A DNA stretch of 64,000 nt from Octopus vulgaris (GCA_951406725.2 OX597817.1:57288001-57352000); one strand, 5' to 3'. Positions 5,498 to 47,800 are shown, counted from the stretch's first letter. Made by a program: numbers and translations. The notes: generated from the letters alone by a model not told the origin.

Positions 5498-5801
5498 AAA
5501 TACACATATGCATACATACATAAATGTACCCACGTTCACATAAACATATACATCATTATGCATATATAAACACACATATATAAACGTACTTCTGTACACA
5601 TAAACACACATAAATATCTGCACGCATATATAAACGCATATGCACATATAAAAACATATGTGCATAGAAATATACATACGCATATATACGCATCCATACG
5701 CATATAAATACATATATGCACACATGCATGCATACATGTATACATAAATGCATTCATTTGAATGAAACAGTTCTAGTCCTGTAGAAGCTCCTTCTATAAA
5801 G

Positions 5802-5805
<4 letters not shown>
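4208..5805 (-). mobile_element. Non-autonomous Penelope-like element with pLTR-type ends and microsatellite-filled interior
   Basis: Left end 4208-4343 carries a hammerhead. 5752-5805 is an inverted copy of about 4276-4329. Both ends are embedded in (TA)n. Confidence 0.6.
4293..4343 (-). ncRNA. Predicted type I hammerhead ribozyme
   Basis: Minus strand reads AGCUUC-CUGAAGA-UUUCAUUUGAAU-GAAA-CAG(UUCUAGUC)CUGU-A-GAAGCU. Stems I and III pair and the triplet is GUA; the first pair of stem II is a U-U mismatch. Confidence 0.75.
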
Positions 5806-5856
<51 letters not shown>

Positions 5857-5859
<3 letters not shown>

Positions 5860-6054
5860 GGTCCCGGGTTGAGTCGGGGTTAACCACAGTAAATAAGGTA
5901 CTCAATACATAGCAGAGTAAAATTAATTTATTATATAGAAGGAGCTTCTACAGGACTAGAACTGTTTCATTCAAGAGAAATCTTCAGGAGCTTCCTGAAG
6001 ATTTCTCTTGAATGAAACAGTTCTAGTCCTGTAGAAGCTCCTTCTATATAATAA

Positions 6055-11800: not shown

Positions 11801-12198
11801 GCGAGCTGGCAGAAACATTAGCACGCCGGGCGAAATTCTTAGCAATATTTCGTCTGTACGTTCTGAGTTCAAATTCCACCGAGGTCAACTTTGGCTTTCG
11901 TCCTTTCAGGGTCGATTAAATAAGTACCAGTTACACACTGGGGTTGATATAATCGACTTAATGCGTTTGTCTGTCCTTGTTTGTCCTCTCTGTGTTTAGC
12001 CCCTTGTGGGTAGTATTTCGTCTGCCGCAATGTTTTGAGTTCAAATTCCGCCGAGGTTGACTTTGCCTTTCATCCTTTCAGGGTCGATTAAATAAGTATC
12101 AGTTATGCACTGGGGTCGATATAATTGACTTAATGTGTTTGTCTGTCCTTGTTTGTCCTCTCTGTGTTTAGCCCCTTGTGGGTAGTAAAGAAATAGGC
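11801..12198 (+). mobile_element. SINE family B, tandem 3' duplication
   Basis: Two consecutive ~180-bp units ending GTTTAGCCCCTTGTGGGTAGTA. Confidence 0.85.
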
Positions 12199-37930: not shown

Positions 37931-38667
37931 CTTGAATTTTTTTCCAATAATGAATATGACTTGAGACATTTGCCTTATCGTCTGTTGTCCTGTTTAACAA
38001 TTATACATCTGCTGCATTGGAAATCTGCAATGGTTACATAACTACCATCTCGTCTGTAAGCTCGGAGCCCCAGTAATTCGTTACAGCACTTACCTAGTGT
38101 ACCTAATCGTTTAGATCACCTGTGAACTAAATCCCCATATTTTGTATATTTACTTATGTAGGTTCTACTTCTTTCAAATTAAGATTTATGTAATCCACTT
38201 CACACCTTTAGAAGGATAAATGAAATGAAAACATTGCTCTCCAGAAAGTCTGGGAGTTAGAAAACGAAATCTTGACTTTTTTTTTTCATTTAATGTGGAG
38301 CATTAATGACACATGCTGAGCCATTTGTTAACAATAGATAGGATTGTAATCTCTGCTCTGTGGAATTGTTGGAAATCTAAAATGCACGAGAGAGGTTCTT
38401 TTATTCTTTTACTTGTTTCAGTCATTTGACTGTGGCCATACAGGAGCACCACCTTTTAGTTGAATAAATCGACCCCAGGACTTATTCTTTGTAAGCCTAG
38501 AACTTATTCTATTGGTCTTTTTTGCCGAACCACTAAGTTACAGGGATGGTAAACACAGACACAAAAACACACACATATATATAATATATCCTGAGCGTCC
38601 AATAGCGCTATACTTGTTCCGCGTCCTCGCGTTGTTGAGTTTTCTCTTTGTGTTTTCATGTTTGGAT

Positions 38668-38700
<33 letters not shown>

Positions 38701-38706
<6 letters not shown>

Positions 38707-38938
38707 GTTATCGCCATACTAATATGGCATTCTTATAAAAATAAGAATAAAGCTGTCCGCTTATTAGCTCCATGAGGCCATCGCCTTAAGTTAGCTATTT
38801 GATACACAAACTGTATCCATATAACCTTCGAACAAGGGAGGTCAGTCGCTCCACACTACTTGACTGGCAGCTACAGACGTGTTTCGGGGTATTGCCCCTT
38901 TTCAATGCAGGGTAGCCAGACCAGTAGGTGTCGCTTCT
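38701..38938 (-). repeat. Hammerhead-containing tandem repeat, part of the unit interrupted by the LINE
   Basis: Nearly identical to 44443-44680. Confidence 0.9.
38870..38911 (-). ncRNA. Predicted type I hammerhead (U3-A8 core variant) downstream of the LINE
   Basis: CUGCA-UUGAAAA-GGGG(CAAUA)CCCC-GAAA-CACG-UC-UGUAG. Confidence 0.65.
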
Positions 38939-39174
38939 AAAATCTTTATTATGATTATAAAAATCTTAGAGAGATAGTACATTACAATACAAAACATAAT
39001 TACAAAAAGTTTACGTTGTTCGTTTGATATTTACATATGTTGATTATTGATTATGATACTAGACTTTACTTTCTCCTTTTTTTTTAAAAATTAAAAATGA
39101 TTTTGGCCAGCTAGGTATATCACAGTCAGGATTCTTACCCGACAGCCTAAGAGCCCAGAGACTATTTTCTCCCT

Positions 39175-42100
39175 TCATGATGACCAAGCAGGGTTACTCA
39201 CACCCACCTTTTTTATCACATCCTTCCATCGATTCACATACTTTTTCTGTGTCAGGTTCCTCTTCTCTAAATCCATCTTGCTCTTTAGATGGTATCTGAA
39301 GTATTTTAACATACCATATCCAGAGACAAAGGTTCCTGACACCAAACCTTCCAATCTAGTTCTCCACACACACTCTTTCAGTACTGCCACCGTACAGTGA
39401 AAACAAGCCTCACCTTCCTTTGAGAGTCCAGCTGGCGGTATCATCTTTATTATAGATCCAGCCGATAGCTGTACTCGTCCCAGATGCGACAACACGTGTT
39501 CTACGTAACTTATTAAGCCTGACAGCTCCTGACAATGTACAAAAGCGTGCTGGACGGTTTCATCATCCAACCCACATCTTGGACATGTCGGTGGCACTGA
39601 CATTCCATGCCTATATAACTTATCGCGAACAGGTAGAGCATTCCTATAGCACTGCCAAGTCAGGGATTTTTGGTAATTGTCCAAATACCCTGGCTTGAAA
39701 GTCTTCTTAAACAGGTCGGATAGTTGATCCTCATCGAACCCCAGAGCCCCTCTTGAGGACGTCGTCATTTTTTGCCTCTACCATCCTTCTATAAAATGTC
39801 GAGGTGGTATTCCCGCAGCCGGCTTTGCCTATCTTGTGGATCAGCCAGAGTGCCTGTCGGCACTCTTTCTGCCATAAAGTCAGGTTCCGTCTTTTAATGA
39901 AACCGGGTTTAAATCTCTCCATAGAGTCCGGTTGCGGGAAGAAATTATCTGCCAGCGGACTCCACACCTTATCACCTTCCAGGTGAAACCAGAGATGTCT
40001 CAGTCTCAGCGCATGCCTGCGCATCATTAACCAAGGCATCCCCAGCCCACCCTTTAGTGGTTCCTGGCAACACACGGAGCGCCTTACAAGTGGCTTTCCT
40101 CCCTTCCACAAAAAGCGGAAAAGGAGTCGATCCAACTTGCTTAGCCACAAATCGGGGCAAGGCACGACAGTCAGGTGATAGGTGATTACAGATGCTATAA
40201 ACACCTGTACCACCTCCGCCCTCCCTTTCAAGGAAAGATGCCTTCCGGACCACTCCCGAACTATGGCTTCTACCTTGGTCACTACCTCGCTCCAATTTTT
40301 CTCCGTCTGGGAGTCTGAACCAAACCAAACTCCAAGCAATTTAACAGGACCATCTGTCCAGTGTCCAACAACACTGGACGATATCGGCTTGTTCCTCCAG
40401 GTGCCGAGGCGCAAACCAGTGGACTTGTCCTTGTTAACTTTTGCCCCAGCCACCGCTTCGTATCTTCGGAGAGCACCTTCTACACGAGTTAGTTGTGCTT
40501 CGTTGGACACGATGAAGGTGACGTCATCCGCATACGCAGAAACAGACTTACCGCATCCGATTTCATTAGGATTGCATCTCACCGTCTCCAACTTCCGCAG
40601 CAATGGCTCAAGAGCCAACACGTACAGGAGAGGGGACAAGGGACATCCTTGACGAACTGAACGCTTAATCGAAAACGGTTCCGTTAAGTAACCGTTTATC
40701 TGGACTGTGGACTTGATACCGCTGTACATAGCTGATATCCACCCACGAAAGTCAGGACCTAGCCCAGCCGCTTCGAGAACCGTCGCCAGGTACTGATGAT
40801 CTACCTTATCAAATGCTTTACTTTGGTCTAAATGGACCAATGCCCCTCCTTTGCCGGCTAATTGCCCAACCCTGTCTGTAGTGTAGCGTAGAAGGTGAAG
40901 ATTATCTTCGATCGACCTGCCTGGGATTGCACATGTCTGTGCCTTTCCGACAAGTTTTTCCATGACGACCTTCAACCTTTCTGCTAACACATTGGCCAAA
41001 ATCTTTAACTCTACATTAAGTAGAGTTATGGGCCTATAATTACTAATATTATCCCCCTTGCTCGGGTCTTTCTGGATCAGCGTCACAACTCCCCGGCTCA
41101 CAGAACTGGGAATCCTCCCATTCTGTTGCCAGTTTGCGTAGACGCTTGCCAGTATGTCCCTGAACAAGTCCGGCATACAACAATAAAACTCATAGGGCAG
41201 ACCATCCAGTCCCGGCGACTTTTCCCGGGCGCATTCAGCCAAAACCCCTCTTACCTCCGCGGGAGTAATCGGTCCTTCACAGCGTTCCGCTCTGCTTGGC
41301 GAGAGCCGAGGCCCACCAGCTAGGAAGTTCTGTAAGTCCTCCCCTCGCTCGAGTGGATCGCCTTCCCCAAACAACCGAGCGAAACGCTGTTGAAAGACCT
41401 TCTGTATCTCCTCCTGTCCATAGATTTTGCGTCCCTGTTCGTCAGTTAAAGACTTAATAGAGGACTTTTTGCCCTTCTGACTCTCCACACGACGTGCCCA
41501 TCCGGCAACATTAATACCTTCTCGTTTCACTGCACGTAGCTTAGCTCTGACTCTACATCCTTCATGCTTGGCATTGAGGTGACGGTACAAGATCGTTCTC
41601 TCTGCTAACACTCTAGATGCACAGCCAGATCCCATTGCCTCGTCTAAGTTCTTAACTAAATCGCCCTCTATTCTAGTCCTATCTAAACTTAGCTGGTTGC
41701 TAAATCTAATGGACTCAAACGGATGGCTCTTTTGAGGGCGATCCACCATCTATTATTAATGATGGTACCACATAATGCCCTCTGGACTAATTCCATAATC
41801 CGGTTACGGAAAGCTTCACAAGCCAAAATAGACTTGTTCATTTTCCAGTATCCGGGTCCCTGTCTATGGCATTTATCTACATGTACCTCACACATCACTA
41901 ATTTGTGATCCGTGTAAGGCACAATACAAAATTGTGGACAGCTAATGCTATTCCTATCTCGTTCTTTAACAAATACCCTATCTATATACGATCTGCGTGA
42001 GCCGTCATTGTTACTCCACGTCCACTGTGGAATGCTCGGCTCATCCATTCGAAACCGATCTACTAGATTAAAGCTCGTCAGTAGACCCTTAAGGCAAGGA

Positions 42101-42573
42101 TTCCCCCTTCTATCAGACGAGCCCACACTATCTATCCGTGCATCGATGATAGTGTTGAAATCCCCTACCAATACTACCGTTTTAGACGTCACTAGAAAGT
42201 GCTCCAAGTTCCGATAAAAACCAGTCTGCCTACCCTCATTAGGAGCATAAACAGCTACCAACCTGAAGGACTGCTTACTCACGTGAGTTACATCGAGGAC
42301 AACCAGCCTACCTTCTGGGTCCATAAAGACAGTACTTACCTGTAAGTCCAAGTTCTTCCTGATAAGGACTGCCATGCCTGCACTCCCTCCTCGGCTAGGA
42401 GAAATAAATTTCTCGTAACCATTGAGAAGATGCGAGAACGCTTGGGTTCCTCTCATCTTGGACTTGGTGACAATGGCTACATCTATTCTGTGTGTCCTGA
42501 GGTCGTCCAGCAAGCAAGCCTGTTTCCATTTCGACCCCATTCCACGCACATTTATACAGCCCAACTTAATCAT
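39175..42573 (-). pseudogene. LINE ORF2 (AP endonuclease, reverse transcriptase, zinc finger), split by two frameshifts
   Basis: EN motifs NVRG, VYAP, GDFN, IDR and TDH; RT motifs KSPGLDG, YRPITLLN, DQSKAFD, QGCPLSP and YADD; zinc finger CPRC...H...C. Frameshifts at about 41720 and 39750; Lys at the expected EN catalytic Glu (VTKSK). Confidence 0.92.
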
Positions 42574-42597
42574 CGATGAATGAAGAAAGTTTGTTAC

Positions 42598-44083
42598 TTA
42601 CGGTTGTGAGAGGGAGCATGGCAGCTTTTGTCTGCCTGCCTCCCCCACACTCTCCGTTGTTGCTGGGCATTTAACCGGCGTTGCCACCGGGCTCTGGGAT
42701 GGAGTGGCTGCCGGGCTAATATTCAATTTTCCAGCTATCACCTCTTGTGTGACATCTTTAATCAGGTTGTCCCTCACGTGTAGTTGGAAGAGTCTCTCCT
42801 TCCATACCTCCTCTCCAACCTTCGCATACCTCCAATCCGGGTTTTTTTCCGATGATTTGAAACATTTTATGTTTGGTTTCGCCTTTATGTACCAAACTAC
42901 TCTCTCATTTGTTGTGTTATAAGCAATGCACCTATCGGTTTTTTTGAATCCTTTTAAAGTTGGGGGCTGGGGTTTAATGAAATGCTGGCCTACAAAAGTA
43001 GTGCCAGCGGGGTGGGATTGGATAATTTTTTTGTGTTGCTCTTCTGCGTTTGTTTTTCTTTTTGTTTGGGGTGGGGAGTCCGGGGTATTGGATTTCTTCC
43101 TTTTGTTGGTTACAGTCGTATATTCCATTACTTCCAGTTCTTTTCCATTTGATAAATTATTTTCCCCCTCGTTTTCGTTTTGTTTTCTATTCATTTTCTT
43201 TTCCTCCTTTTGACTTTCATTTTGCTTTTTCCGGGTATTCTCTTTTGTTGTTGCTGTGATGTCTGCTTTGTTCTCCACAGCGGTTTGAATGGGGGCATTA
43301 ACGGGTTTTTTTCTTTTTGCACTCTGAGCGGACGTGACCCTTCTGCCCACATTTGAAACATCTGGGCCTACGTCCCTCCACCGATACCCGCATAGTGTGT
43401 CCATCCCCCACGAAGACCCTGTCTGGCAAACTCTCCAGCGTTGCATTGTCAGCTTGAACTATCATTTCAAGCTGCTGACCTTTCCAAAATTTTGCCTCTT
43501 TCATCCTCATGTTTAAAATGTTTAATTTCTCTTCTACGTCAAATACGACCGCTGTTGCTGCCCACATTACATCGTAACCTGTTGGTATATCCTCTATTGT
43601 TACCTTAGCTGTTCTGCGCCCTAAGTACGTGGGCATCAACAGGATGTCTGCACTCTTCAACGTTTGAGTTGAAATTTCCTTCACTATGCTAGCCGACTCG
43701 AAATGCGCTTCAATAGTAGCGCTTCTCACTCCTTGGCCAACATAGCGAACCTTGTTCCAAATTGGTGCCATGCACCGTTCTACCAATTCATTTTTTACAT
43801 CTGCAATCTTTTTTTCCTTAATATTATATACCTTATAAATTACCGTCTTCTCATGGATTGCTTGTAAGGTGTCAGGGGGCGGTATTATTCTCGTTTCTTC
43901 TCCATTCTTTTGTATGAACTTTCTGAACTTGAAGAGATCCCCCATTGCTACTTCCAGTTCTATAACATTGCCTCCAACGGCTTCCAAAAAACTTTGTTTC
44001 TTCTTTGTATCCTTTAGCTTTTCATTATTTATAACTTCTCCCATCTCGGGAAAATCAGAATTTGACGTTAAGTCAAGATCCAT
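42598..44083 (-). pseudogene. LINE ORF1 (zinc-knuckle RNA-binding protein), one frameshift
   Basis: ATG at 44083, knuckle CFKCGQKGHVRSEC, and a frame change in the A-run at about 43305-43320 into ORF 42598-43446. Confidence 0.85.
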
Positions 44084-44300
44084 ATTAAAATGCAAGTGAC
44101 TTGTCACAAGAGACAAGATAAAAATTAATTCCACACTGAATTAAAGTTCATATATAAAAAGAAATTTTCTACCCCAAAGGGCGAAAATTACTTTGTTCCA
44201 CAAGTTAATACTCCAAAAATTGTACGTTTAAATCCAGAACAGAACGAACTAACATAACAGCTTACAACGTAAAATAATCCGACGTAATCCAAGGAAAAAT

Positions 44301-44841
44301 CAGTAGGTGTCGCTTCTGACAATCTCTGTTCGAAGGTTTTATTTACCTAGCTTCGGTGGAATACATCCACTTGTTTTCAATAATAGAAATATTAAAATTA
44401 CTAAGTCTCTCTAAAAGAGAACAACGGCAGCGTTCCCGGAAAATAATAGTTATCGCCATACTAATATGGCATTCTTATAAAAATAAGAATAAAGCTGTCC
44501 GCTTATTAGCTCCATGAGGCCATCGCCTTAAGTTAGCTATTTGATACACAAACTGTATCCATATAACCTTCGAACAAGGGAGGTCAGTCGCTCCACACTA
44601 CTTGACCGGCAGCTACAGACGCGTTTCGGGGTATTGCCCCTTTTCAATGCAGCATAGCCAGACCAGTAGGTGTCGCTTCTGACAATCTCTGTTCGAAGGT
44701 TTTATTTACCTAGCCTCGGTGGAATACATCCACTTGTTTTCAATAATAGAATGCCATATTAGTATGGCGATAACTATTATTTTCCGAGAACGCTGCCGTT
44801 GTTCTCTTTTAGAGAGACTTAGTAATTTCAATATTTCTATT
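44301..44841 (-). mobile_element. Retrozyme/Penelope pLTR-like repeat: 363-bp tandem unit plus inverted tail
   Basis: CAGTAGGTGTCG recurs at 44301 and 44664 (period 363). About 44750-44841 is an inverted copy of about 44383-44473. Flanked by (TA)n. Confidence 0.85.
44612..44653 (-). ncRNA. Predicted type I hammerhead (U3-A8 core variant) upstream of the LINE
   Basis: GCUGCA-UUGAAAA-GGGG(CAAUA)CCCC-GAAA-CGCG-UC-UGUAGC, with a palindromic ACGCGU stem III and a GUC triplet. Confidence 0.8.
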
Positions 44842-47800
44842 ATATATATATACATATACATATACACGACGGGCTTCTTTTAGTTTCCGTTTACCAAATC
44901 CACCCACAAGGCTTTAGTCAGCCTGAGGCTACAGTAGAAGATACTTGCCCAAGGTGCCACGCAGTGGGACTGAACCCAGACCCATGTAGTTGGTAAGCAA
45001 GCTACTTACCACACAGCCACTCTTGCACCTATGTTATTAATAAATTGAACAAACTAAAAGGTTATACTTCTATAGGACTTTTCCAAAGGCTGGCTCCATA
45101 TCTAGAAACCTGGGGTCCATACCTTCATCACCAGTGACAGGATTGATCTTTGCTGCCGAGCCATACCTCTATATCATTATGGTTGTAACTGATCATATTC
45201 AAACAACCCTTGGTTCTCATGACACACACTGAGGATTGTCGATGATTGTTATTTATATATATTATATTCATCATATTATTTATATTCTTTTACTTGTTTC
45301 AGTCATTTGACTGTGGCCATGCTGGAGCACCGCCTTTAGTTGAGCAAATCAACCCCAAGACTTATTCTTTGTAAGCCTAGTACTTATTCTATTGGCTTCT
45401 TTTTTGCCGAACAGCTAAGTTACGGGGATGTAAACACACTAGCATCGGTTGTCAAGCGATGTTGGGGGGGACAAACAGACACACAAACATACATACACAC
45501 ACACACACATATATATATACACACACACACGATGGGCTTCCTTCAGTTTCCGTCTACCAAATCCACTCACAAGGCTTTGGTTGGACCAAGGCTATAGTAG
45601 ACGACACCTGCCCAAGGTGCCTCGCAGTGGGAATGAACCCGGAGCCATGTGGTTGGTAACCAAGCTACTTACCACACAGCCACTCCTGTGCCTATAATTT
45701 ATATTTAATAACTTTTTTCCAGTTTACTTCTAGCACTGGGTTATCTTTAATAACTATGTCATCCTCTCTCGTTACACACCTAATTCTTTATAATTTATTA
45801 TTTTATAAACTCTCTTGACACTATTTAGCACATATCAGGGCCTCCGTAACTCTTACAATTTTTATAAACTCTTTTAAACATTGTCTTGTTAATCCCAATA
45901 ATTACATTATTTACATTTTACGGTTATTTGTAAATAATTCCTCATCTCTTAAATATAGAACTGTATAATCCCAATATTTTCAAATCACTCGGTAATGTTC
46001 TATCTATTGTGCCAGTACAATTTTAATTAACTTACTTTATTTGAAATAATTTGTGGCAACTTTGGTTGTTATAAACATTAAGTTAATGCCTTTGGCTCAT
46101 CCTTGTTTATCAGTTCTGCTTTTCTTTCTCAGTTAAGCTCCGGTCTTTCAACTGACAGATTCTTTGCAGCTAAGTAACTGACATCTACATACCGTGTGGG
46201 CTAAACTCTCATCATTATTATTATTATTCTAGGATGTTCATTTCTTCATTCTTGCCAATACCATGTTCCTCTCAGTCTTGTACCTCTTCCTCTCTCTTAC
46301 TTGTTTCAGTCATTTGACTGTGGCCATGCTGGAGCACTGCCTTTTAGTCGAGCAAATCAACTCCAGGATTTATTCTATTGGTCTCTTTTGTGGAACTGAT
46401 AAATTACGGGGATGTAAACACACAAGCATTGATTGTCAAGTGATGTTGGGGGGGACAAACACAGACACAAAAACATACACACACACACACACACATATAT
46501 ATACGACAGGCTTCTTTCAGTTTCCGTCTACCAAATCCACTCACAATGCTTTGGTTGGCCTGAGGCTATAGTAGAAGGCACTTGCCCAAGGTGCCACACA
46601 GTGGGACTGAACCCGGAACCATGTGTTTGAGAAGCAAGCTACTTACCACACAGCCACTCCTACGCCTCTGTAAGTGATTTATCTTTTTCTTTCTTTTCCT
46701 TTTACTCCCCCTCTTCTTTCCTTCTTCCAGAATTCTGCAGAGAACCTAGCTCAGCTGCAGTTTTGTTCTGCATTGTTAGCTGGATCTCCTGTCACTACGA
46801 TCCAAGTGCAAATTCCGCTGAGGCCGACTTTGCCTTTCATCCTTTTTGGGGTCGATAAATTAAGCTCCAGTTGCATACTGGGGTCGATGTGATCGACTAT
46901 CCACCCACACTCAAATTCCAGGCCTTGTGCCTAGAGTAGAAAGGATTATTAGCTGGATTTCCATTAAACGATGCCAATATACTTGTCGTTCAATAATATT
47001 CTTTTGGAACTCTTATAAAAATTAAGAGTATGAAACAACGAATGCTGACTTTAAAGTAATATTATACAGTAAATGTCTCTTTTTCCTTTGAGCCACATTG
47101 GCAGCTGCCTTTGAACATGTTTTGATGGGGATCAGACGTCATGCTTGGTTCCTACTCTCTGCTAGATTCAAGTAAGTTTAGTGACCTTTGGCCTTTGTGG
47201 ATGAGATCGCAAAGCTTCATGACTTTAGGTTTATTGGTGCCTTTAACTGTCCTTATATTTATGACTTTATTCTACCATCCATCCCTCTTGATTGGCCGGT
47301 TGCAGACACACCCAGCTTCGATTTCTTAAATATTGGTAATTCTGATTAGACTTCATTTGTTGATAAATCAAATCGTTAATTTGGTTGCCTGACGAGTTGG
47401 GTGTTATGTCGCGTTAGACAGTCTAACTAAATTGTATTATGCTTAGGTCACAATAAAGACTCTGAATGAAATAACTGGAGCAATTACCAGAAAGCCCCTT
47501 AGTCTATAATAAGATACATACACTCACATACATACAGTGTGCCTTGGAAAAAAGATGGGATGGCCATGGCTGGAACATCTTTTCACACAAGTTTGCTCAA
47601 TAAGGACTGACAGCTAAACAATAACACAAACAAACAGATATCGTTATAAACGTAAATACATAAAAAAAAAAAAACTAAACATCAATTGCTTTGAATTTGT
47701 TTATTCCAATCAAACTTTTAGATATGCCAATCTATACAACTTGTCTTGTTATTTTTTTTTCCGATATTTTTTCTTGCAATTAAATTTGCAAAATGAAAAG

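Follow-up and report, generated by a model that had tools for sequence, protein, structure and literature searches.

Why does a retrotransposon lie inside a ribozyme-bearing repeat, bracketed by two ribozymes of its own orientation? The question is raised by a 64,000-nucleotide (nt) stretch of the Octopus vulgaris genome (G000:C4:57288001-57352000, hereafter the window; feature coordinates are positions within this whole stretch). In the window, a long interspersed nuclear element (LINE) interrupts a tandem repeat with a hammerhead fold. An earlier note on this DNA had suggested that the LINE family targets such repeats and uses the host ribozymes to release its RNA. Genome-wide analysis showed that the family, here called family A, is indeed target-specific. 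The insertion point is probably the transcription start of the repeat, and the ribozymes seem dispensable.

Target specificity of family A

Family-A ends were defined by an exact pattern for the last 28 nt of the LINE, which gave 28 ends in the 2.8-Gb genome. All 21 ends of the 'AAG' type (family A), from 16 loci, were followed by the same site of the hammerhead repeat (host A) in one orientation, and none of the 21 was found at U1 or U2 small nuclear RNA (snRNA) genes or at other repeats. The seven 'ACG' ends were never at this site. Empty host-A sites numbered 1,020 by exact pattern; the total of about 1,041 sites represents about 2 in 10 million positions. The 5' junctions were exact in 16/16 full-length copies. 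The five truncated copies all kept the site on the 3' side, and three of them on the 5' side too. Target-specific LINEs are defined by more than 20% of flanks being one target and by 5'-truncated copies keeping that target (PMC4494074; here and below, statements on cited papers refer to part of their text). By this definition family A is a target-specific LINE, and the family-level targeting proposed earlier is borne out by the genome count of 3' ends.

The LINE copy in the window

The features of the LINE copy are as follows.

44300..38939, minus strand: full-length family-A LINE (L1/Tx1 type) with two open reading frames (ORFs), 5,362 bp, three frameshifts
42598..44083, minus strand: ORF1, with a CCHC zinc knuckle and one frame break
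39175..42573, minus strand: ORF2, with APE endonuclease, reverse transcriptase and zf-RVT, and two frame breaks
44301..44317, minus strand: 17-bp target duplication, 5' copy; its first base is the putative +1 of the host repeat
38922..38938, minus strand: 17-bp target duplication, 3' copy
38945..38950, minus strand: AATAAA, 6 nt before the LINE end
39106..39118, minus strand: decayed stretch resembling the U1 5' end, in the LINE 3' untranslated region; homology judged by eye

The 17-bp flanks (44317-44301 and 38938-38922) are identical, and Pfam recognised a CCHC knuckle in ORF1 (PF00098, E 2.2e-5, above the cut-off) and the APE endonuclease (PF03372), reverse transcriptase (PF00078) and zf-RVT (PF13966) domains in ORF2. 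The earlier description of a 5.36-kb minus-strand LINE with two ORFs and a perfect 17-bp duplication is upheld, with the three frameshifts as an addition. The insertion has no poly(A) tail, as had been stated; the LINE had also been said to end at AATAAA, and this end position is corrected here, the element running 6 nt past the signal. An older relative has a better U1 match at the place equivalent to 39106-39118.

The best PDB match of ORF2 was human L1 ORF2p (E 1.6e-66), with R2 reaching only 1e-23. Judged by its ORF2 domains (APE, reverse transcriptase and C-terminal zinc-binding), the element is an L1-group retrotransposon of the kind lacking long terminal repeats (non-LTR). A CCHC zinc knuckle in ORF1 is a feature of the Tx1 clade, and the Tx1 label, which fits the anatomy of family A, is likely. 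The endonuclease hairpin loop has DG in common with the Tx1L graft, in an alignment two residues shorter, and the L1, LTx and LR1 chains scored alike. A protein search outside Repbase returned 71 homologues, none named Tx1; a metagenome scan found no relative. Family A is recent and probably active, since both ORFs are open in seven of the 16 full-length copies.

Independent insertion or hitchhiking

The association of LINE and repeat might also have arisen from a single chance landing, after which the Penelope machinery spread the repeat-LINE-repeat composite. This composite resembles a Penelope element in which the LINE replaces the ORF. The LINE clades and host haplotypes co-vary in part, and in one copy a break within the LINE is joined, via microhomology, to an inverted host arm. 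Such spread is also favoured by L220 and L221 at C4:124.128-124.134 Mb, two near-identical LINEs of the related family C that share a short branch of the tree and face each other head to head at a distance of about 5.4 kb. They look like a Penelope-type insertion with a LINE in each of its two arms.

The host haplotypes, largely uniform among the units of one locus and different between loci, speak for another origin. The youngest LINE clade (0.5-4 changes per kb, one 693-nt row left out) occupies five host haplotypes, three of which were also found empty among 30 background loci. One truncated young copy lies in an A-type host and has the local letter in its duplicated site, while all its sisters occupy G-type hosts. 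Near-identical LINEs in different, locus-wide haplotypes are not expected from hitchhiking. Nor are the truncated copies: three of the five rejoin the same-sense host at unit positions 361-363, 356 and 343, that is, at the site. Counting against independent insertion, the other two rejoin elsewhere, one at an inverted host arm and one at unit position 298. In a five-copy tandem, three of the four junctions are LINE-site-LINE with the 17-nt site only, and the fourth contains exactly one whole unit; hitchhiking does not account for LINE-site-LINE tandems, nor for the use of an equivalent position in three separate repeats and two snRNA genes.

Because truncated copies rejoin at the site and the haplotypes are locus-specific, repeated independent insertion is indicated. 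Independent targeting by family A is, with high confidence, the simplest reading, and a single landing spread by Penelope is very improbable as the general cause. Occasional hitchhiking is plausible, with about even chances, though not as the main cause, and the Penelope machinery may have co-mobilised some copies. At C1:162.6 Mb (L112:7643-7879), the 220 nt after the LINE have a haplotype differing from the rest of the array and join unit position 20; this stretch is ambiguous and could be a 3' transduction or a separate host insertion.

The host repeat and its hammerhead

The host features in the window are listed below.

44301..44663, minus strand: one complete 363-bp hammerhead-repeat unit (host A)
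44664..44751, minus strand: partial upstream host unit, unit positions 276-363
44748..44843, plus strand: inverted host arm, unit positions 189-284, a Penelope-type 5' inversion of 96 nt
38701..38921, minus strand: downstream host piece, unit positions 1-221, terminating in a (TA)n tract
44606..44660, minus strand: the upstream hammerhead (type I, with the U3-A8 core and a 1-bp helix III whose loop is palindromic); cleavage predicted after 44618
38864..38918, minus strand: the downstream hammerhead, with a mismatch in helix I (38911) and a changed palindrome (38880); cleavage predicted after 38876

Without the LINE, the host consists of about 1.9 units of 363 bp and the 96-nt inverted arm, flanked by (TA)n tracts. 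The 363-bp spacing of the tandem repeat reported earlier is right, and the repeat is modest in extent. Among the 16 LINE loci, the host 3' end is commonly near unit position 221 or 284 and the inverted 5' arm is frequent; such an arm has been described for Penelope-like insertions (PMC8557442). Hammerhead-bearing tandem units are known from non-LTR retrozymes and from the pseudo-LTRs (pLTRs) of Penelope elements (PMC7229834, 10.64898/2026.07.22.740005). Host A has short tandem units with a hammerhead, 5' truncation, an inverted 5' arm, microsatellite insertion sites and no ORF. By its anatomy it is a non-LTR retrozyme or non-autonomous Penelope-like element, because the tandem unit, hammerhead, inverted arm and (TA)n tracts occur together.

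In the hammerhead of host A, the U3-A8 core is combined with helices I (6 bp), II (4 bp) and III (1 bp), the last with a palindromic loop. This architecture, with a short helix III, the need to dimerise and the U3-A8 variant, has been described (PMC4209133). In 13 variants from four repeat families, 13 of the 16 hammerhead pairs change on both sides and 97% of cells pair, a statistic that is inflated by the relatedness of the variants, although the slid-pair controls were low (28-51%). The observed value was reached in none of 500 shuffles, and the core elements GA..A, GAAA and UC are invariant across the variants. Folding gave z = -7.6 for the 145-nt hairpin and z = -2.2 for the hammerhead core alone. 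The Rfam hammerhead models gave no match up to E 10 on 44480-44760, nor on three pieces of other hosts. The cuts are predicted 317 nt upstream and 63 nt downstream of the LINE. The folds and cuts near 44618 and 38876 in the earlier note were thus recovered at the same positions, with covariation now backing the fold. On this covariation the host-A hammerhead is real, and self-cleavage is predicted. The downstream hammerhead of the window is damaged, with a broken helix I pair and an altered helix III palindrome.

Another hammerhead variant with the U3-A8 core and different helices occurs at L121:258-314 (minus strand; C3:81.45 Mb), about 5 kb from a family-A locus. Within the window, abundant SINE-like (short interspersed nuclear element-like) copies were noted by eye on both sides of the host array (38390-38580, 44860-45030, 45290-45700 and 46300-46500). 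Farther away there are a 172-bp tandem repeat at 11860-12187 (1.9 copies, 92% matches), and a near-perfect palindrome with an inverted repeat around an (AT)n tract at 5749-6030. The latter is the source of the top Rfam microRNA matches; the microRNA matches in the window were rejected as simple repeats and this palindrome.

Sister families and snRNA targets

Relatives of family A use other targets. For the 'ACG' sisters and other close relatives (U1-type copies), 11 3' ends were read: nine start with ATAC, one is at a full U1 gene, and one is in a U1 array (C18:49.0 Mb). Family B is about 85% identical, and 11 of its 12 3' ends are at a second hammerhead repeat (host B), at a site unrelated to that of host A; for three of the family-B ends the evidence is the 16-nt site alone. 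Two further junctions are of the same kind, and 51 exact empty host-B sites were found. In family C (22 tree rows), three of the five junctions read are at a third hammerhead repeat (host C) and two are in the U2 locus; the C-site motif has 275 occurrences in the genome. In both the U1 and the U2 genes, the LINE 3' junction coincides with position 1 of the Rfam model.

A tree built on 1,278 columns of the endonuclease region placed family A among the U1-type copies (support 100/99), with B and C as the sister clade and the U1-array copies basal under midpoint rooting. Monophyly of A, B and C was rejected (p-AU 3.6e-6), with two reservations that weaken the case: this clade test was named after the tree had been seen, and the U1-array copies may be mosaics. 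Since the three families do not form one clade, the hammerhead repeats were most likely reached at least twice, from snRNA-gene targets. The ORF2 proteins of family A and the U1-type copies have seven fixed residue differences in 934 positions, three in the endonuclease and none in its hairpin loop. Families B and C differ from A in the loop after the YAP motif.

The U1 array at C18:49.00-49.06 Mb (L190-L194) has nested and tandem LINEs of several ages, with three Rfam U1 genes in L194. At C3:20.81-20.83 Mb (L222, L227, L229, L242, L243), three family-C LINEs stand in a row and end at U2 +1, the middle junction consisting of 14 nt of U2 and a foreign 14-nt leader. C4:130.77-130.78 Mb (L120) has a family-A LINE in host A and, about 2 kb upstream of it, one of family B in host B. 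The 5' ends of family-D LINEs are in a related repeat with the same upstream motif as described below (L050, L051 and L055; C17:38.4, C7:111.0 and C1:94.1 Mb). In L203 near 8770 (minus strand; C10:36.26 Mb), LINEs of more distant kinship form a tandem whose junction has another 16-17-nt site.

The insertion position

What do these targets have in common? The nick letters differ among them. The distance from the nick to the hammerhead core also varies, being 32-33 nt in host A, 32 in host B and 25 in host C, and targeting of the ribozyme structure was rejected on this variation. A constant distance was found for one upstream motif, in a comparison covering the U1 genes and hosts A-D. Its copy next to the LINE is the following.

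44366..44374, minus strand: motif ACAAGTGGA, at -57 from the nick, a candidate snRNA-type promoter element aligned with ATCAGTGAA of U1 genes

The U1 genes have ATCAGTGAA at -57/-58, and a second host copy of ACAAGTGGA is one unit up (44729-44737). The string (C/A)AGTG starts at -55/-56 in both intact U1 genes, in four of five host-A flanks, in all four host-B flanks, in the single host-C flank and in one of three flanks of a fourth host (D), with one more of these at -58. Its frequency in shuffled sequences is about 0.01 per sequence. It was absent at the upstream offset in the one off-target U1-type site checked. The proximal element of snRNA promoters is about 60 bp upstream of the start (PMC4494074), and newt satellite 2, also a hammerhead repeat, is said to have an snRNA promoter used by RNA polymerase II (PMC2220036, citing Coats et al. 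1994). The constant motif distance, together with the varying core distance, suggests that the LINEs aim at the transcription start of short genes and not at the ribozyme. In every target the nick is likely to mark the +1 of a promoter of snRNA type, with the motif as its promoter element.

Some observations weigh against this reading. The motif was noticed after the fact, and its match to U1 is weakest in host A (7/10 letters, compared with 9/10 in hosts B, C and D). There is kinship among hosts B-D, and the host copies of the motif double as an arm of a short palindrome. Most U1-type 3' ends are at ATAC-like sites; of the 11, a full U1 gene accounts for just one and the U1 array for one other. 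Insertion can take place outside a promoter position, as the U1-type copies at plain ATAC sites demonstrate.

Possible release by the host ribozymes

The flanking ribozymes could have a direct function. Two host hammerheads might excise unit positions 47-363, the LINE, the site and unit positions 1-46 from a read-through transcript, and the product, perhaps circularised, might serve as the template. A same-sense hammerhead was found 62-65 nt downstream in 15/15 loci checked and 316-317 nt upstream in seven of 12 5'-intact single copies, and its fold covaries. Such ribozymes act as dimers, and the flanking copies could pair (PMC4209133). The one tandem junction of exactly one unit also agrees with such excision. 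However, the remaining five 5'-intact copies have no upstream sense hammerhead, and three of these have both ORFs open. The sisters inserted in U1 and U2 lack a hammerhead, yet they share the 3' end of family A and, where junctions were read, its 5' start too. The other three tandem junctions hold the 17-nt site and not the whole unit expected of a ribozyme-to-ribozyme circle, no truncated copy rejoins at unit position 46, and the varying core distance at a constant motif distance is also unfavourable. Two-ended release is therefore improbable. As a requirement, the release of unit-length, possibly circular RNA suggested in the earlier note is disfavoured by the five intact copies without an upstream hammerhead and by the snRNA-inserted sisters that have none. 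A cut at the downstream ribozyme alone is rather doubtful; in the boldest form of the model, if true, this host hammerhead would also trim the 3' end of the LINE RNA. Among the matches listed from contigs of four sequencing runs, one of them presumably RNA, none spanned a junction of LINE and host with 31 letters on each side; such contigs do not reveal transcript ends, strand or circles, and no weight was placed on them. A further idea placed the nick at ATAC in helix II, 17 nt ahead of the point of ribozyme cleavage, and made the mobile unit run from cut to cut; it was rejected because the truncations rejoin at 343-363, not 46.

Proposed mechanism

A promoter-based route was preferred to ribozyme release. 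On balance, the comparison of junctions favours a LINE lineage that targets short multicopy RNA genes with a promoter of snRNA type, inserting where their transcription starts and borrowing the promoter. The older targets would be the U1 and U2 genes; family A would have moved to the Penelope-type hammerhead repeat, and B and C to others. The LINE, lacking its own promoter, would be transcribed by the host promoter with a 17-nt host leader. Poly(A) cleavage usually occurs 10-30 nt after AATAAA. With AATAAA 6 nt before the LINE end, the 3' cut would fall inside or just past the duplicated target, and the RNA would terminate in target sequence. The two short host flanks on the RNA could base-pair with the nicked DNA during both priming and the joining of the 5' end. 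Such pairing would give exact junctions, no poly(A) tail, and the fidelity of each family to its donor's own target. Two hammerheads would flank the LINE simply because the site sits just upstream of the ribozyme in a tandem unit.

Evidence for the leader came from two copies. At C15:21.1 Mb, an off-target U1-type copy carries U1 nt 1-17 at the 5' end and not at the 3' end, and the U2-locus copy has the foreign 14-nt leader after the U2 duplication; these leaders suggest that the RNAs began at the host +1. Against the proposal, both belong to U1-type and family-C copies and not to family A, and the RNA ends are those we infer. R2 forms uniform 5' junctions if upstream target sequence is present on its RNA (PMC3774820), and targeting is reportedly strengthened when element and target are co-transcribed (PMC4494074, section 20). 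Pairing of RNA flanks would explain why family A and the U1-type copies keep different targets despite their seven fixed differences and the same hairpin loop. A role for RNA flanks in targeting is slightly favoured on these grounds.

The specificity could instead be encoded in the protein: the endonuclease of each family would read its own DNA site, small residue changes would have shifted it from U1 to the repeat, and the RNA flanks would be irrelevant. The Tx1L endonuclease nicks its target almost exclusively in vitro (PMC1950540). The U1-type copies retain the ATAC preference off-target, the loop after the YAP motif differs in B and C, and a few letters of the host-B and host-C sites agree with the 5' ends of U1 and U2. 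Yet the sites of family A and the U1-type copies have no common letters at the nick, with only three fixed endonuclease differences between the proteins. None of the three is in the two surface loops named in the cited part of PMC1950540, and the constant upstream-motif distance is left without explanation. Specificity carried by the protein alone is thus unlikely.

Tethering is another candidate, in which the LINE particle would bind the snRNA promoter complex (SNAPc) and nick at a fixed distance. TRE5-A and Ty3 are tethered to TFIIIB. The constant -55/-56 spacing over unrelated nick sequences is in line with tethering, as is the use of both U2 and a repeat by family C. But family A was at its own repeat in every case, the off-target site checked has no motif, and tethering alone cannot give family-level fidelity. 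As the sole explanation it is hardly probable, though it could be combined with RNA pairing; protein-encoded recognition or tethering to the promoter complex may contribute besides the flanks. The combined rule makes position the target, at the +1 of any promoter of snRNA type, and lets the short host flanks on the RNA bear family specificity; it is offered tentatively and seems less probable than not.

If this promoter-and-flank model is true, a new site-specific family would arise from a single uncommon insertion into another promoter-bearing repeat, its proteins nearly unaltered, a LINE system could be retargeted by changing about 17 nt of its RNA, and invertebrate retrozymes would be transcribed like snRNA genes.

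Comparison with known systems

As far as the literature was searched, two kinds of target are new for site-specific LINEs: hammerhead retrozymes, and U1 and U2 genes at their first nucleotide. In the full-text literature (Repbase, subscription journals and supplements excepted), no LINE targeting hammerhead repeats or the +1 of snRNA-type promoters was found. No U1-targeting LINE was listed as of 2015 in the cited part of PMC4640811, and the words 'hammerhead', 'ribozyme' and 'snRNA' do not occur in the consulted part of the 2026 octopus repeat annotation (PMC13282606). The system is a parasite of a parasite with a clear insertion rule. Target switching has been caught within one genome, between relatives whose ORF2 differs at so few fixed positions, and it makes testable the open question of whether the protein or the RNA flank determines the target of a LINE. 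The family-A site also hints at where animal retrozymes have their promoter and start site.

Keno's U2 site is internal. The known target-specific Tx1 LINEs include Keno (U2 snRNA), Tx1L (the Tx1D transposon), Tx1-Mar (Mariner) and Kibi/Koshi (microsatellites) (PMC4494074). Family A and its relatives share with this group the APE-type two-ORF organisation, a fixed multicopy site, truncated copies that keep the target, and the use of transposons as targets. They differ from the Tx1-clade LINEs described in the cited part of that paper in having a Penelope-type hammerhead target, snRNA sites at +1, and five kinds of target in one lineage. Dada DNA transposons and Utopia also target snRNA genes, with other enzymes (PMC4640811).

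The host resembles the non-LTR retrozymes and Penelope pLTRs in its tandem units of about 360 bp, in its type I hammerhead (6 bp in helix I, 4 bp in helix II, a short palindromic helix III, the U3-A8 variant), in the inverted 5' arm and in the (TA)n sites. The cited parts of the retrozyme literature (PMC7229834, PMC4209133, PMC8557442, 10.64898/2026.07.22.740005) mention no LINE parasite, and 'Tx1' does not occur in that of the preprint. Newt satellite 2 is likewise a hammerhead tandem repeat with a reported snRNA promoter, but it belongs to a vertebrate and has no LINE. With R2 of the 28S ribosomal DNA, the proposed mechanism has in common a promoterless co-transcription model and upstream target sequence on the RNA that gives uniform 5' junctions (PMC3774820). 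R2, however, uses a restriction-like endonuclease and its own ribozyme of the hepatitis delta virus type, whereas here the ribozyme is the host's hammerhead and is seemingly dispensable.

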